This document shows positions 29,923-37,988 of a stretch of DNA of 64,000 nt, piece after piece. The notes beneath the pieces are model-generated. The model made no database searches and was not told the DNA's origin. It was given only the letters and a program-made list of their open reading frames with translations. The DNA is taken from the sequence record PP925842.1. One strand, 5' to 3'. The first letter of the stretch is position 1, and every line of letters starts with the position of its first letter. Made by a program: the position numbers and the translations under genes. The stretch is from Escherichia phage KookSpook.

Positions 29923-29998
29923 TGGTAGTTAGTAGTGGAATTGAACCACTCTGGTCACTCCGTATGAAGGAGGTGCATAACCGATCTGCCAACTAACT
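29923..29998 (-). tRNA. tRNA-Met/Ile2 (anticodon CAT)
   Basis: cloverleaf by eye: acceptor agttagt/actaact, T-arm agtgg-ttcaatt-ccact, loop ttCATac, CCA encoded. Confidence 0.7.
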
Positions 29999-30004
29999 AT
30001 AATT

Positions 30005-30081
30005 TGGTACTCCGGGAGGGATTTAAACCCCCGATCTCTCGGTTATCAGCCGAGTGCTTTAGATCGCTAAGCTACCGAAGC
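30005..30081 (-). tRNA. tRNA-Ile (anticodon GAT)
   Basis: acceptor gcttcgg/ccggagt with GU pairs, anticodon arm ctcgg-ctGATaa-ccgag, CCA encoded. Confidence 0.7.
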
Positions 30082-30091
30082 ATTAAAATAT

Positions 30092-30385
30092 TTACATTAT
30101 ATTGTCTAAGTAAGAAATATACCGGAATTTAGCTTCTCCAGTCTTATCTACTTCTACCTCAGTTCGTGGTACTTGACGAACTACACCATGAATCATCTTA
30201 TAGCGGATGCCTTTAGCTGGTTCATGATCTTTTGGAAATACTTGTTTAACCGTTACTACTTTATACCCATCTCGCGGTGTTAATACAACTACTTGATCAC
30301 CTTCTTTGATTTTCCAAGAGGGTGGGAATTCATAGGTGTATCTTTGGCCACCAGTTTGGAATACTACAGAAAGATAACGTTTCAT
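30092..30385 (-). CDS. hypothetical protein
   Basis: 97-aa ORF between tRNA genes. Confidence 0.5.
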   Translation of the reverse strand: MKRYLSVVFQTGGQRYTYEFPPSWKIKEGDQVVVLTPRDGYKVVTVKQVFPKDHEPAKGIRYKMIHGVVRQVPRTEVEVDKTGEAKFRYISYLDNIM

Positions 30386-30415
30386 TTGGTTTCCCTCTCA
30401 TTAATTTATATAAAT

Positions 30416-30444
30416 ATTATAACAAGAAATAAGAGAGAAGGCAA
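30416..30444 (-). promoter_or_regulatory. strong early promoter (TTGCCT-17-TATAAT)
   Basis: attata 30416-30421, aggcaa 30439-30444. Confidence 0.6.
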
Positions 30445-30460
30445 ATAAATTTTTAAAATT

Positions 30461-30547
30461 TGGTGCTGGGCACAGGATTCGAACCTGCAATGGGATTACT
30501 CCTCCTGATTACAAATCAGGTGCATTCAGCCTTTCTGCCAACCCAGC
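30461..30547 (-). tRNA. tRNA, type II (long variable arm); anticodon unresolved
   Basis: acceptor gctgggt/gcccagc, T-arm gcagg-ttcgaat-cctgt, CCA encoded, anticodon loop tttgtaa. Confidence 0.55.
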
Positions 30548-30557
30548 AATAACCCGC

Positions 30558-30767
30558 TTATTTCAGCGGGATTTCTTTTTCAATAACAGGAGACTTATCA
30601 GTCATAACTGTCATCGCCATTTGTTGTAGAAACTCAAAAGTAAAGGCTACTCGTTCTTCGCCAATTTCTACTTCTACACGTTTCTTTTGTTTGTCGATTT
30701 TGACTTTTAAATTATCAGCCATTATGTGGTATAATACTGGTAGTTGGCAATATTGCAGATGAAGCAA
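30558..30767 (-). CDS. hypothetical protein
   Basis: 69-aa ORF. Confidence 0.4.
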   Translation of the reverse strand: MLHLQYCQLPVLYHIMADNLKVKIDKQKKRVEVEIGEERVAFTFEFLQQMAMTVMTDKSPVIEKEIPLK

Positions 30768-30966
30768 CAGTATTTAAATGCTTTCTCCAGTCTAGGTTAA
30801 ATTGTTTTCGAAACTCTTCATAAGGTTCTTCTGGATAAAAGCTAAAACCTCCTTTTTCATCATTTAGGATAACAGAGCCATCCGTTTGTTCATATGCTCT
30901 GTATGTTTCTCCAATAATGATAACTCGCTTATCAGTACTTTTATTACGAAACTCAAAAACATGCAT
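30715..30966 (-). CDS. hypothetical protein
   Basis: 83-aa ORF. Confidence 0.4.
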   Translation of the reverse strand: MHVFEFRNKSTDKRVIIIGETYRAYEQTDGSVILNDEKGGFSFYPEEPYEEFRKQFNLDWRKHLNTVASSAILPTTSIIPHNG

Positions 30967-30982
30967 AATGTTTCCTTAAAGT

Positions 30983-31058
30983 TGGAGCGGCTAGAGGGAA
31001 TCGAACCCTACTCAGCGAGGCTTGGAAGGCCTGCGACACAACCCGTGTGCTTAACCGC
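30983..31058 (-). tRNA. tRNA, tentatively Gly (TCC)
   Basis: acceptor gcggtta/tagccgc, T-loop ttcgatt, CCA encoded; anticodon stem only 4 bp with loop cttccaa. Confidence 0.5.
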
Positions 31059-31065
31059 CTTAAAT

Positions 31066-31143
31066 TGGCAGGGGATATTGGATTTGAACCAATGATCTCG
31101 ACTTCAAAGGCCGAAGCTTTAGGCCAAGCTAAGCTAATCCCCA
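31066..31143 (-). tRNA. tRNA-Gln (TTG)
   Basis: T-arm attgg-ttcaaat-ccaat, anticodon arm tcggc-ctTTGaa-gtcga, CCA encoded. Confidence 0.6.
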
Positions 31144-31149
31144 ACTGTT

Positions 31150-31225
31150 TGGCAGAAGGTAGTGGGTTCGAACCACTGATCAGGGTTTCAGAGACCCCAG
31201 CCTTAACCGACTTGGCTAACCTTCT
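31150..31225 (-). tRNA. tRNA-Gln (CTG)
   Basis: acceptor agaaggt/accttct, anticodon arm ggggt-ctCTGaa-accct, CCA encoded. Confidence 0.6.
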
Positions 31226-36395: not shown

Positions 36396-36440
36396 CTGAG
36401 CAAGTCAAATTTTAAAGAACTTGCTCAGTGTCACACTAGT
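36396..36440 (-). terminator. hairpin terminator overlapping a promoter -35
   Basis: cactgagcaagt ... acttgctcagtg 12-bp inverted repeat. Confidence 0.4.
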
Positions 36441-36715
36441 TAGTCGAACTTAGGGGTGACAGTCAAGGAGAATGGAAGTTCGAAAACTTCTTCACCTTCA
36501 TCACTAACTGTAACCACACGACCTTTAAGCTCAGACATTGAAATATCAATATCAGCTCTTGCATCTGGAGACATACCAGCCTCAATGCATTTAGCCTTAA
36601 TTTCAGGTAGAAGTTCTACATTGTAGAAGTAGAGCCATTCAATCTCACCTTCCCAGTCTTCCCAGGATTTACAGATTGCACTTTCAATACCCGTCGGGAT
36701 AACACGCTTAGACAT
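36440..36715 (-). CDS. hypothetical acidic protein
   Basis: 91-aa ORF. Confidence 0.5.
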   Translation of the reverse strand: MSKRVIPTGIESAICKSWEDWEGEIEWLYFYNVELLPEIKAKCIEAGMSPDARADIDISMSELKGRVVTVSDEGEEVFELPFSLTVTPKFD

Positions 36716-36745
36716 TCGTTAACTCCTTCATCAATTTATATAACT

Positions 36746-36775
36746 ATTATACCAGAAATTTAAAGCAAAAGGCAA
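36746..36775 (-). promoter_or_regulatory. early promoter (TTGCCT-18-TATAAT)
   Basis: attata 36746-36751, aggcaa 36770-36775. Confidence 0.5.
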
Positions 36776-36805
36776 GTACATTTTTAAAAATTCCGTCTGG
36801 AGGAG

Positions 36806-37012
36806 TTAAACTCCAGATTCTTCGGCTAAGTCTAAACTAATAAGAGATATAGCCATAATTGCTGCCCCATGTTCTTTTTCTCCTGTTTCTTTAGCTATAG
36901 TTATAATATCAAGAAATTGCTTATGAAAATCTGCAACCTCTTGAGTTATGCCTGCTTCAGCAATCATGCCTTTAAGCATGAAGCGTTGCGCCGTAATCTC
37001 AGGGTTAGCCAT
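36806..37012 (-). CDS. hypothetical protein
   Basis: 68-aa ORF. Confidence 0.4.
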   Translation of the reverse strand: MANPEITAQRFMLKGMIAEAGITQEVADFHKQFLDIITIAKETGEKEHGAAIMAISLISLDLAEESGV

Positions 37013-37187
37013 TTATTTTCTCCAGTTTCATTTTTAATAGTTTACAGATGAAGTCAATATCTTCATCTGTTCCTAAATCCCTGTCTTCAAGAGTTGCCTT
37101 AAAGTTTTTAGTCAATTCCATAAGGATAACTTCTCTAGAACGATGTGTTGGTGGAGGTGGGTGTCTAAACATCTTATTTCCTTAATT

Positions 37188-37264
37188 TGGTAGGGGTGGT
37201 GGGATTCGAACCCACAAAACCTGAATTTTAAGTCCAGTACCTATGCCAATTCGATTACACCCCC
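37188..37264 (-). tRNA. tRNA, tentatively Leu (TAA) with short variable arm
   Basis: T-arm gtggg-ttcgaat-cccac, anticodon arm ctgga-ctTAAaa-ttcag, CCA encoded. Confidence 0.5.
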
Positions 37265-37365
37265 ATGTAATCAGTTTATTAGTTGGTACATATTGTAACC
37301 TAACGAAAATCCTACCACTAATCCTACAAACCAACCAATATAATAGTCTTTTAGTTTCACAGGTA

Positions 37366-37551
37366 TTAACCTCGTTCAATATCTAGAGAAATACCGCAGG
37401 CAGGATTAATACCTGTGCCTTTGCACATCTGACAAATCCAGATATTACAGAAAGTATCTCCTGCTTCTGCATCAGAACTTTCACCAATCCCCTTACACTC
37501 AGGGCAGGCACATTCTTCTATCTCTTTCTTGAGTTCTTGAAACTTAGACAT
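37366..37551 (-). CDS. Cys-rich small protein
   Basis: 61 aa with CxxC motifs. Confidence 0.4.
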   Translation of the reverse strand: MSKFQELKKEIEECACPECKGIGESSDAEAGDTFCNIWICQMCKGTGINPACGISLDIERG

Positions 37552-37559
37552 ATAGTCTC

Positions 37560-37748
37560 CTAGTCAATTACTTTTGAGGCTTCAAGGGAGTCGATATAGT
37601 GTGCGTTTTCTACCATAATCATATAATCTGCCACTTTATCCATAGCTTGGGCTTCAGAGGTAGCTCTGGCTAACCTATATCCTTGCTTATATTCATCCGG
37701 GTGTTCTCTATCTTGAATAAACACAACATAAACTATGTATAATTCCAT
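37560..37748 (-). CDS. hypothetical protein
   Basis: 62-aa ORF. Confidence 0.4.
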   Translation of the reverse strand: MELYIVYVVFIQDREHPDEYKQGYRLARATSEAQAMDKVADYMIMVENAHYIDSLEASKVID

Positions 37749-37767
37749 TTGTAACCCCTAATTAAGT

Positions 37768-37845
37768 TGGTGGCTCCCCGAGGATTCGAACCTACGTACC
37801 TTCCGGTTATGAGCCGGGTGCTCATACCATATGAGCTTGAGAACC
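37768..37845 (-). tRNA. tRNA-Met/Ile2/fMet (CAT)
   Basis: D-arm gctc...gagc, loop ctCATaa, acceptor ggttctc/gggagcc with two GU pairs, CCA encoded. Confidence 0.55.
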
Positions 37846-37850
37846 AAAAT

Positions 37851-37944
37851 TGGAGGAAGATGCCAGACTCGAACTGGCACACCGTGTTTCCACAGCTACT
37901 GGTTGTTTAGCAAACAACTCCCTTACCATTAGGGTTAATCTTCC
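37851..37944 (-). tRNA. tRNA-Ser (GCT), type II
   Basis: acceptor ggaagat/atcttcc perfect, anticodon arm gttgt-ttGCTaa-acaac perfect, T-arm gccag-ttcgagt-ctggc. Confidence 0.7.
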
Positions 37945-37959
37945 GAATTTATAAGATAT

Positions 37960-37988
37960 ATTATACAGAAAATTTCGGCATTAAGCAA
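37960..37988 (-). promoter_or_regulatory. strong early promoter heading the tRNA cluster (TTGCTT-17-TATAAT)
   Basis: attata 37960-37965, aagcaa 37983-37988; first tRNA begins about 16 nt downstream. Confidence 0.6.

Follow-up and report, generated by a model that had tools for sequence, protein, structure and literature searches.

The tRNA gene block of Escherichia phage KookSpook (sequence record PP925842.1, of which the 64,000-nucleotide (nt) stretch analysed here is referred to as the window) raises the question of whether tRNAs can be genuine when the form of their variable arm disagrees with what their anticodons would lead one to expect, and if so, how such bodies come to be kept. The window is from a T5-like phage (Demerecviridae), and in the block we recognise a tRNA gene region of the T5 type, which is expressed early. 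Two of its leucine tRNAs lack the long variable arm, and its threonine and asparagine tRNAs carry a variable-arm hairpin. We consider these four atypical but intact tRNAs to be genuine and selectively maintained isoacceptors which are most likely charged according to their anticodons, a reading to which we give a probability of about 0.7, with bodies possibly remodelled under pressure from tRNA-cutting nucleases (tRNases). The four genes are as follows:

32946–33022, minus strand: tRNA-Leu(TAG), type I, 77 nt, A73 (ARAGORN; Rfam 47.5 bits; covariation; alignment with leuV)
37188–37264, minus strand: tRNA-Leu(TAA), type I, 77 nt, with the same architecture as tRNA-Leu(TAG) (ARAGORN; Rfam 57.4 bits; covariation)
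30461–30547, minus strand: tRNA-Thr(TGT), 87 nt, type II-like (ARAGORN; Rfam 55.1 bits; minimum free energy (MFE) fold; covariation)
35109–35191, minus strand: tRNA-Asn(GTT), 83 nt, G73 (ARAGORN; Rfam 59.0 bits; MFE fold; covariation including the variable stem)

A preliminary description of this DNA, made by eye, had reported short variable arms on the two leucine tRNAs, a 13-nt variable arm on the asparagine tRNA, and a type II tRNA at 30461 whose anticodon loop TTTGTAA reads TGT, and had suggested that these might be decoding oddities or errors in the manual parse. The architectures were recovered as described (a 5-nt variable loop in both leucine tRNAs, and a 3-bp D stem with a variable-arm hairpin in the threonine tRNA). 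All four are found by ARAGORN at its default setting, one of the checks that had been proposed, and by the Rfam tRNA model RF00005 above its gathering score of 29, and as covariation also agrees with the manual folds, parsing error can be set aside. Decoding oddities are unlikely as well, as the published E. coli identity elements fit the anticodon in each of the four.

Leucine tRNAs without a long variable arm

Both leucine tRNAs have A73, a D stem of 3 bp with an 11-nt D loop (GAATTGGCATA), and a variable loop of 5 nt (GTTTT) in place of the long variable arm of class II tRNAs. In alignments to E. coli leuV and to the type II leucine alleles of T5-like phages, they show a single clean 10-nt gap which corresponds precisely to the variable arm, with A14, A15, G18, G19, A20a, U48 and A73 unchanged in the leuV alignment. 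Among eight type I leucine tRNAs from four phage families, A73, the A15–U48 pair, G18G19 and A20a are invariant. The determinants recognised by the E. coli leucyl-tRNA synthetase (LeuRS) are this same D-loop and core set together with A73, the long arm and the anticodon both being dispensable, and tRNA-Leu variants without the arm remain active with the enzyme (PMC9976931).

The covariation alignments used here and below are small (5–8 sequences, some of them closely related). For the type I leucine tRNAs, seven sequences, taken from T5-like phages and from Pseudomonas phage ZC03, gave 97.9% paired cells compared to 76% after shuffling, with compensatory changes in 11 of 20 pairs, and this pairing with changes on both sides of the stems indicates that the architecture is real and conserved. 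Type I tRNA-Leu has been known from Streptomyces coelicolor (PMC6614811) and animal mitochondria. Unlike those, the phage tRNAs keep the E. coli-type leucine D loop and A15–U48, are viral, are found across many phage families, and have type II alleles as alternatives at the same locus.

A threonine tRNA on a type II body

ARAGORN, Rfam and unconstrained folding all return the 87-nt threonine tRNA as a cloverleaf, in which the D stem is 3 bp, the D loop 11 nt and the variable hairpin GGA-GTAA-TCC, and both A73 and CCA are encoded. The two marks of a class II tRNA, a variable-arm hairpin of more than 10 nt and a 3-bp D stem, are therefore present in full. The first four acceptor pairs (GCUG...CAGC) and A73 are as in E. 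coli thrT, and the anticodon arm CUGA-UUUGUAA-UCAG is of the E. coli thrU type. The D arm is identical to that of a tRNA-Tyr allele from another T5-like phage (L025), and the spacing of the D loop is of the tyrosine rather than the leucine type, with one nucleotide fewer ahead of G18G19. The threonyl-tRNA synthetase (ThrRS) determinants G1–C72, C2–G71, G35 and U36 are all present, and both U35, read by the tyrosyl-tRNA synthetase (TyrRS), and the leucine-type D loop are absent. Judged from its sequence, this tRNA is a mosaic in which a tyrosine-like type II body carries threonine-type acceptor and anticodon arms.

The same scaffold is found with another identity in an Erwinia phage of the Vequintavirinae, where an 87-nt tRNA-Trp(CCA) aligns with the threonine tRNA in every column and has the same D, variable and T arms, but with the acceptor (A1–U72, G73) and anticodon swapped for the tryptophan set. 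In an alignment of this scaffold covering the 87-nt threonine and tryptophan tRNAs and an 84-nt tyrosine tRNA, 99.3% of cells are paired and 11 of 23 pairs show compensatory changes, one of these in the variable stem.

An asparagine tRNA with a variable-arm hairpin

The 83-nt asparagine tRNA has a regular 4-bp D stem, an anticodon arm like that of E. coli tRNA-Asn, and G73. Its 13-nt variable region folds into the hairpin GTC-GAGA-GAC, capped by a GNRA loop, so that the molecule has the hairpin of a class II tRNA on a D stem that is still 4 bp. Unconstrained folding returns this hairpin, as it does that of the threonine tRNA.

Homologues with such a variable arm occur in T5-like phages, in Bas33, in Klebsiella phage KpV477 (Straboviridae) and, among the Vequintavirinae, in Salmonella phage NINP13076 and in Erwinia phage pEp_SNUABM_01. 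All of them, and the asparagine tRNA of the window, have the asparaginyl-tRNA synthetase (AsnRS) set of G34, U35, U36 and G73. The stem varies between GTC/GAC, GTCA/TGAC, GAGT/ACTC, GAGC/GCTC and ATCC/GGAT, and the loop is invariably GNRA (GAGA, GAAA or GCAA). Across five sequences, 99.2% of cells are paired and 15 of 25 pairs show compensatory changes, including three of the four pairs of the variable stem.

Alleles, distribution and codon use

We compared alleles in the window and 26 related loci (27 loci altogether). The threonine (TGT) gene is the 87-nt form in seven loci and a 75-nt form in 17; the leucine (TAG) gene is type I in 18 and type II, from three unrelated families, in eight; the asparagine (GTT) gene is 83 nt in 16 and 78 nt in nine; and the leucine (TAA) gene is type I in all 22 loci which have it. 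Alternative alleles bear no sequence relation to each other. At the threonine locus the flanks are conserved up to both ends of the tRNA, and at the asparagine locus this holds for the downstream flank alone because T5 has an open reading frame (ORF) inserted upstream. Unrelated alleles within conserved flanks imply replacement by cassette. T5 itself has only the canonical alleles (75-nt threonine, 85-nt type II leucine (UAG) and 78-nt asparagine tRNAs) and no tRNA-Leu(UAA), hegA being found where the window has tRNA-Leu(TAA), and for this reason the atypical forms may have escaped the classical literature on T5.

The tyrosine (GTA) gene of T5-like phages has at least five allele families of 80–91 nt. 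We note that the 80-nt tRNA-Tyr of Escherichia phage DaisyDussoix (Bas31, 13253–13332) corresponds to the 91-nt allele with 11 nt lost from the variable arm; the deletion lies between two CTCGG repeats and leaves a short variable loop.

In the phage collection, records with homologues at 80% coverage or more numbered 340 for the TAA and 363 for the TAG leucine tRNA, 96 for the 87-nt threonine tRNA and 534 for the 83-nt asparagine tRNA, with tRNA-Leu(TAA) found at 99% identity or more in 292 phage records. Outside the Demerecviridae, homologues were found in the Ounavirinae, Vequintavirinae, Straboviridae and Schitoviridae, and those of the type I leucine tRNAs include SUSP2 (Ounavirinae), NINP13076 (Vequintavirinae) and ZC03 (Schitoviridae). 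BLASTN searches with the 77-nt leucine and 87-nt threonine tRNAs found no match on the chromosome in any of 5,426 complete E. coli genomes, and these are therefore not recent captures of host tRNAs.

Some of these loci have further features. In Escherichia phage SUSP2 all three tRNA-Leu genes are type I (TAG, CAA and TAA, at 2497–2574, 3080–3157 and 4076–4154 of its locus). Erwinia phage pEp_SNUABM_01 has, at 1492–1578, 2755–2841 and 2904–2989 of its locus, the tRNA-Trp(CCA) on the 87-nt threonine scaffold, a tRNA-Asn of 86 nt and a ‘tRNA-Lys’ of 87 nt in which the D region is enlarged. Pseudomonas phage ZC03 has an 82-nt tRNA-Pro(TGG)-like gene without CCA (594–675 of its locus).

The preliminary description had also proposed comparing the anticodon set with codon usage. 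We did this for 51 long ORFs of the window and 35 annotated E. coli K-12 genes (50 kb), as shares per amino acid:

CTA: phage 0.21, E. coli K-12 0.04
TTA: phage 0.31, E. coli K-12 0.09
ACA: phage 0.26, E. coli K-12 0.10
AGA: phage 0.18, E. coli K-12 0.02

The tRNA set favours codons used far more by the AT-rich phage than by E. coli, and the atypical tRNAs are among those reading such codons. As the phage depends on these codons, this argues for a role in decoding and against one as decoys or mistranslators.

Defence nucleases and the remodelled bodies

The threonine and asparagine isoacceptors are known targets of anti-phage defence, and recent work has shown that tRNAs of the T5 family also stand in for host tRNAs lost to defence nucleases. 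AriB of the PARIS system cuts the tRNAs for lysine (UUU), threonine (UGU) and, less well, asparagine (GUU) between positions 40 and 41, reading U36AAUC|A/C41 with a second monomer reading U16–U17 of the D loop, and T5 tRNA-Lys, tRNA-Thr and tRNA-Asn jointly neutralise it (PMC12409363). The OLD nuclease of P2 cuts tRNA-Thr(UGU), tRNA-Gly(UCC), tRNA-fMet, tRNA-Val(UAC) and tRNA-Pro(UGG) (preprint 10.64898/2026.07.10.737580). PtuAB-type nucleases of Septu and type I-A retrons cut tRNA-Tyr in the variable loop and also cleave tRNA-Ser, which is cut by a related retron (PMC12475279), and T5 tRNA-Tyr is said to resist the PtuAB of retron-Eco7 by means of its distinctive variable loop (PMC11555353, PMC13096335).

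The isoacceptors which have gained a variable hairpin in the window, threonine (UGU) and asparagine (GUU), are exactly the non-lysine targets of AriB. The tRNA-Lys(UUU) of the window shares with T5 the resistance substitutions A39, C41 and C16, and in the canonical-length threonine and asparagine alleles of T5 the AriB site contains G39. The long-arm alleles differ in the D loop, and their hairpin begins 2 nt (threonine) or 1 nt (asparagine) past the cut strand.

We propose that the phage copies would replace host tRNAs destroyed by such nucleases, with AriB, OLD and PtuAB (from Septu and from type I-A retrons) as candidates, and that the remodelled bodies may be kept through changes to the surfaces read by these nucleases that spare recognition by the synthetases. 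Remodelling without a change of identity is possible because the determinants used by these synthetases lie in the acceptor end, in the anticodon or in the D/T-loop core and not in the variable arm. That the bodies are maintained in this particular way, by altered nuclease recognition with synthetase recognition intact, seems to us possible but short of an even chance, and for the leucine tRNAs the idea is an extension by analogy with PtuAB, which cuts the variable arm of tRNA-Tyr and targets tRNA-Ser.

Experiments made by others with Bas33 (HildyBeyeler) bear on the threonine tRNA, as the only threonine allele of this phage is the 87-nt form, differing from that of the window at three of 87 positions; Bas33 also lacks tRNA-Lys(UUU). 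In the PARIS study, Bas33 was rescued by T5 tRNA-Lys alone whereas T7, which has no tRNAs, required both tRNA-Lys and tRNA-Thr. When the Bas33 tRNA-Thr(UGU) is provided in trans, OLD-sensitive phages plate near wild type and better than with T5 tRNA-Thr (10.64898/2026.07.10.737580). These experiments suggest, indirectly, that a threonine tRNA with a type II body decodes and resists at least OLD.

Phage tRNAs that evade tRNases have been described earlier (van den Berg et al. 2023, PMC10264068; PMC11464382; PMC12409363), in the same phage group and for isoacceptors also considered here (Lys UUU, Thr UGU, Asn GUU and Tyr). However, the evasion described consists of point substitutions around the cut site, whereas the threonine and asparagine tRNAs of the window have a host-like cut site with an added hairpin and a different D arm, and the tRNA-Leu have lost an arm. 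We therefore advance, tentatively, an architectural route of immune evasion separate from the described point mutations, in which LeuRS, ThrRS and AsnRS would routinely charge tRNAs of the ‘wrong’ class during infection. It should be noted that our literature search, which found no account of arm-less tRNA-Leu or long-armed threonine, asparagine or tryptophan tRNAs in phages, is weak evidence as older subscription papers (the T5/BF23 sequencing of the 1980s) were mostly outside it. As far as our searches show, the tRNA architectural classes are new here, and the cluster and the evasion of nucleases by point mutations in phage tRNAs were known already.

Several observations weigh against genuine isoacceptors remodelled under tRNase pressure. 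We know of no nuclease that targets the variable arm of tRNA-Leu. MFE folding of the two type I leucine tRNAs yields no cloverleaf and we relied on covariation instead; such folds are common for tRNAs with weak D stems. The 87-nt threonine and 83-nt asparagine tRNAs retain a host-like AriB motif (UAAUCA and UAAUCC, respectively), so that, going by these motifs, any resistance to AriB would have to be structural. Bas34 needed T5 tRNA-Asn against PARIS despite having an asparagine gene of its own, which, depending on the allele, could weaken the case for protection by the asparagine tRNA, and some phage tRNAs are still cut, as in the case of T6 tRNA-Tyr by Septu and T5 tRNA-Ser by the FORC82 retron. 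Finally, the type I tRNA-Leu(CAA) of S. coelicolor is not charged by E. coli LeuRS (PMC6614811), and leucylation by this enzyme of leucine tRNAs lacking the variable arm is not guaranteed.

Alternative explanations

The odd arms might instead be neutral, the product of relaxed constraint and of cassette shuffling driven by homing endonucleases, and tolerated without adaptive value. This would agree with the ORF with HNH and NUMOD4 domains that overlaps tRNA-Gln(CTG) in the window and with hegA–E in the equivalent region of T5, with breakpoints of replacement at the tRNA ends, with several allele families for one anticodon and a decayed tRNA-Lys(CTT) in the window, and with the spontaneous loss of tRNA blocks from T5 in culture (PMC12475279). 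However, the architectures persist with compensatory changes over five phage families and the variable hairpin always has a GNRA loop, which points to purifying selection on the odd features themselves, and the long arms are found specifically on the nuclease-targeted threonine (UGU) and asparagine (GUU) tRNAs. Mosaicism driven by homing endonucleases is a plausible account of how alleles move but not of purifying selection across families, and we regard neutrality as an unlikely explanation of the whole.

A role outside translation, with the atypical tRNAs serving as decoys or competitive inhibitors of tRNases or as tRNA-like regulatory RNAs, appears less likely again. The authors of the PARIS study consider it possible that viral tRNAs inhibit when over-expressed, the region encodes tRNA-like stable RNAs as well, and the long-arm threonine and asparagine tRNAs keep the motif recognised by AriB. 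Against this, the identity sets are complete, CCA is encoded, the 7-nt anticodon loops are canonical with U33, and the anticodons fit the codons most over-used by the phage, while under OLD a phage tRNA-Thr(UGU) (the Bas32 allele, followed by Northern) replaced the host tRNA and did not protect it.

Recoding would require the 87-nt threonine and 83-nt asparagine tRNAs to be charged by LeuRS, the seryl-tRNA synthetase (SerRS) or TyrRS, or the type I leucine tRNAs to be charged with something else, so that ACA, AAC, CUA and UUA were read unconventionally. LeuRS and SerRS ignore the anticodon, the threonine tRNA has A73 on a type II body and the asparagine tRNA G73 with a variable hairpin, and there is precedent for class II tRNAs with anticodons other than those for leucine and serine (PMC3333845, PMC7609411), namely the nev-tRNAs of nematodes (PMC3333845) and the allo-tRNAs (Mukai 2017; PMC7609411), which likewise combine a long arm with a class I anticodon. 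However, nev- and allo-tRNAs carry leucine or serine identity and mistranslate, whereas the discriminator, acceptor and anticodon of the phage tRNAs fit the amino acid of the anticodon. Where allo-tRNAs have 8/4 or 9/3 acceptor and T stems and serine identity, the phage tRNAs are all 7/5 with short hairpins of 3–4 bp, and the threonine tRNA has A73; and where a nev-tRNA would have the leucine set on a class II body, it has the tyrosine-type D-loop spacing and a threonine-type acceptor. This placement of G18G19, the lack of U35 for TyrRS and the match of acceptor and anticodon arm to the ThrRS set all speak against mischarging, and the asparagine tRNA, with a 3-bp hairpin and 4-bp D stem, is far from having a serine-type arm. 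Furthermore, canonical threonine and asparagine alleles exist at the same loci, so that recoding would entail mistranslation of orthologous proteins, the phage ORFs are rich in ACA, CTA and TTA, and the Bas33 tRNA-Thr(UGU) stands in for cleaved host tRNA-Thr. As far as can be told from identity elements, the identity given by the anticodon looks canonical, and we consider recoding very unlikely.

That the tRNA calls are artefacts has practically no probability for the four intact tRNAs, for although Rfam misses tRNA-Ala(TGC), tRNA-Ser(GGA) and the element at 34482, four genes need relaxed ARAGORN, and some GenBank records have tRNA-OTHER or pseudo labels, two independent detectors find these four at default or gathering thresholds with strong covariation and with variable hairpins recovered by unconstrained folding, and the explanation holds only for 34482.

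The tRNA gene region and its relatives

Megablast of positions 29900–38000 against 50,697 phage records matched 655 of them, nearly all Escherichia, Salmonella and Klebsiella phages, and all of the matching records which we fetched are Demerecviridae (Tequintavirus or Epseptimavirus). The top match (96.1% identity, 86% query coverage) is named ‘Campylobacter phage C13’ but is an unverified record classified as Tequintavirus. The T5 record NC_005859 has the equivalent block on the same strand, with around 25 tRNA genes, small ORFs, the HNH homing endonucleases hegA–E, early promoters as well as eight ‘stable RNAs with unknown functions’, and shares the order of tRNAs, ORFs and stable RNAs with the window. 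The cluster itself is already known, being the classic, curated T5 tRNA region (NC_005859; annotation of the Ksenzenko group, Wang et al. 2005) with 24–25 tRNA genes and stable RNAs I, III, IV, 1, 2, 2H, 3 and X. Shared with T5 are the genomic block, strand, gene order, flanking genes, type of homing endonuclease and stable-RNA homologues, with the counterparts of tRNAM, tRNAfM, tRNAI2 and tRNAG1 being 92–100% identical; the T5 tRNA-Val(UAC) and RNAI have no counterpart in the window.

In the window, tRNA genes are mixed with small ORFs, one homing-endonuclease gene and stable-RNA genes. The minus strand of 29923–37944 has all 26 tRNA-type genes of this span, 25 of them intact and one decayed, and tRNA-Arg(TCT) lies outside at 41677. 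The preliminary description was right to see a phage tRNA cluster here, though it did not recognise the T5-type region that homology and synteny identify, and its count of roughly 27 genes compares with the 26 found. It was also right about tRNA-Arg(TCT), about the three CAT tRNAs, which are homologues of the T5 elongator Met, initiator fMet and Ile2 tRNAs, and about the two glutamine and three serine genes (ARAGORN including relaxed runs, and the annotation of T5_ev212). The set spans 19 amino acids, with valine absent, and CCA ends are encoded. Several sigma-70-like promoter matches lie upstream of groups of tRNAs in the block, at a frequency no higher than expected by chance.

ARAGORN at default finds 22 tRNAs in 29923–37944 as well as tRNA-Arg(TCT) and a tRNA-like ‘Ser(act)’ at 42336–42409, and relaxed ARAGORN adds Gly(TCC) 30983–31058, Ser(TGA) 32641–32735, Ser(GGA) 32743–32833 and Met/Ile2(CAT) 37768–37845. 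Rfam at the gathering score gives 23 tRNA matches, including the additional CAT tRNA at 37771–37845, and misses those already mentioned. A permissive Rfam scan of 29500–43000 returned tRNA and tRNA-Sec only, with no further family above noise. Two relaxed ARAGORN calls, Asp(ATC) at 35294–35383 (within an ORF) and a plus-strand Gln(TTG), were rejected as false positives. In GenBank records of relatives annotated with tRNAscan-SE, homologues are named tRNA-Leu and tRNA-Asn, and other pipelines have given tRNA-OTHER or pseudo in some records. The remaining genes of the set are as follows:

29923–29998, minus strand: tRNA-Met(CAT), elongator type, 76 nt (ARAGORN; Rfam 43.7 bits; 92% identity to T5 tRNAM(CAU))
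30005–30081, minus strand: tRNA-Ile(GAT) (ARAGORN; Rfam 64.7 bits)
30983–31058, minus strand: tRNA-Gly(TCC) (relaxed ARAGORN; 100% identity to T5 tRNAG1(UCC))
31066–31143, minus strand: tRNA-Gln(TTG) (ARAGORN; Rfam)
31150–31225, minus strand: tRNA-Gln(CTG), with its 5′ 23 nt shared with the homing-endonuclease ORF (ARAGORN; Rfam)
31203–31784, minus strand: homing-endonuclease ORF with HNH_3 and NUMOD4, 193 amino acids (aa), counterpart of T5 hegD (Pfam; T5 annotation)
32010–32084, minus strand: tRNA-Arg(ACG) (ARAGORN; Rfam)
32090–32166, minus strand: tRNA-His(GTG) (ARAGORN; Rfam)
32641–32735, minus strand: tRNA-Ser(TGA), type II, 95 nt (relaxed ARAGORN; annotated as a 95-nt tRNA-Ser in T5_ev212)
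32743–32833, minus strand: tRNA-Ser(GGA), type II, 91 nt (ARAGORN with -ps85 only; a 91-nt tRNA-Ser in T5_ev212)
33028–33106, minus strand: tRNA-Ala(TGC), 79 nt, with G3–T70 (ARAGORN; no Rfam match)
33392–33469, minus strand: tRNA-Lys(TTT) with A39, C41 and C16 (ARAGORN; Rfam; PMC12409363)
33658–33735, minus strand: tRNA-fMet(CAT), initiator type (ARAGORN; Rfam; 98.7% identity to T5 tRNAfM)
33742–33817, minus strand: tRNA-Pro(TGG) (ARAGORN; Rfam)
34482–34558, minus strand: pseudo-tRNA, decayed tRNA-Lys(CTT) (alignment with the intact gene of six relatives)
34735–34811, minus strand: tRNA-Asp(GTC) (ARAGORN; Rfam)
35199–35274, minus strand: tRNA-Cys(GCA) (ARAGORN; Rfam)
35907–35981, minus strand: tRNA-Phe(GAA) (ARAGORN; Rfam)
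35988–36064, minus strand: tRNA-Trp(CCA) (ARAGORN; Rfam)
36073–36149, minus strand: tRNA-Glu(TTC) (ARAGORN; Rfam)
36156–36246, minus strand: tRNA of a tyrosine allele family (ARAGORN; Rfam 32.6 bits)
37768–37845, minus strand: tRNA-Ile2(CAT), lysidine type by homology (Rfam 40.3 bits; relaxed ARAGORN; 97.4% identity to T5 tRNAI2(CAU))
37851–37944, minus strand: tRNA-Ser(GCT), type II, 94 nt (ARAGORN; Rfam)
41677–41753, minus strand: tRNA-Arg(TCT), outlying member of the set (ARAGORN; Rfam 54.3 bits)

The 95-nt serine (TGA) allele is found in eight other loci and the 91-nt serine (GGA) allele in most of those compared, and both genes agree with the T5_ev212 annotation in position as well as in length. 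The T5 counterpart of the tRNA-Gln(CTG) whose first 23 nt are covered by the homing-endonuclease ORF, overlapped there by hegD, has been flagged as a pseudogene.

A decayed tRNA, stable RNAs and other elements

The preliminary description had seen a tRNA near 34483 without an encoded CCA and with the T loop TTGAAGC, and both features are found at 34482–34556. ARAGORN calls this element Arg(CCT), Rfam finds no tRNA match, and its MFE fold is not a cloverleaf. An intact 76-nt tRNA-Lys(CTT) is present at the homologous place in six relatives, and compared to this the anticodon loop has changed from CTCTTAA to CTCCTAG, the T loop from TTCAAGT to TTGAAGC (C56 to G) and CCA to CAA, the GG of the D loop has been lost, and two changes in the 3′ acceptor strand cause a mismatch. 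By this alignment the element is a dead tRNA-Lys(CTT) gene and not an odd decoder. A reading of its loop, TCCTAGG, as holding the CTA anticodon of an amber suppressor was rejected, as what is present here is a copy of the intact lysine gene with damage at several points.

Homologues of the T5 stable RNAs RNAIII, RNA1, RNA2H, RNAIV, RNA2 and RNA3 lie between the tRNA genes, and the presence of these accounts for T-arm-like motifs there:

32168–32273, 32500–32637, 33126–33297, 34111–34210, 34239–34362 and 35034–35106, minus strand: T5 stable-RNA homologues (80–97% identity to T5)

The RNA1 homologue is tRNA-like, with a leucine-type D arm and an insertion, and the RNA2 homologue is also tRNA-like. 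RNAX was mapped too, and its homologue (41751–42464, minus strand) contains the tRNA-like element at 42336–42409 (minus strand) called ‘Ser(act)’ by ARAGORN and given 37 bits by the Rfam tRNA model. Of the 26 related loci, 25 have this element. Its acceptor and T stems show compensatory changes, and it has no CCA and an anticodon-like loop (TAACTGG) without U33.

A 112-nt non-coding block (32834–32945, minus strand) with a T-arm-like hairpin (GGGTTCGAATCCC) lies between tRNA-Ser(GGA) and tRNA-Leu(TAG), where T5 has hegC. It is 96–99% identical in 21 related loci, exceeding the neighbouring ORFs, and has no Rfam match and an unremarkable folding energy (z = -0.84). The stretch separating the main cluster from tRNA-Arg(TCT) holds two plus-strand ORFs, one at 38891–39919 (342 aa) with a low-complexity stretch rich in His, Asp and Glu near the N terminus, and one at 39942–40370 (142 aa) which is strongly Gln-rich; their counterparts are the hypothetical proteins T5.077 and T5.078.

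Implications for T5-like phages

Reviews hold that the long arm is present on tRNA-Leu everywhere but in animal mitochondria and one Streptomyces exception, and that long arms are confined to leucine, serine, tyrosine and selenocysteine tRNAs. Both rules are broken here and in hundreds of phage genomes, in tRNAs that have to work with the translation machinery of E. coli or Salmonella. The atypical architecture may explain why annotation pipelines have labelled such genes as tRNA-OTHER or pseudo. If these tRNAs are charged as their anticodons predict, they would be natural experiments on recognition by synthetases and possible scaffolds for tRNA engineering. Furthermore, long arms on the targets of PARIS (and, for threonine, also of OLD), together with the cutting of variable loops by PtuAB, provide a testable explanation of why T5-like phages differ in their sensitivity to these defences.

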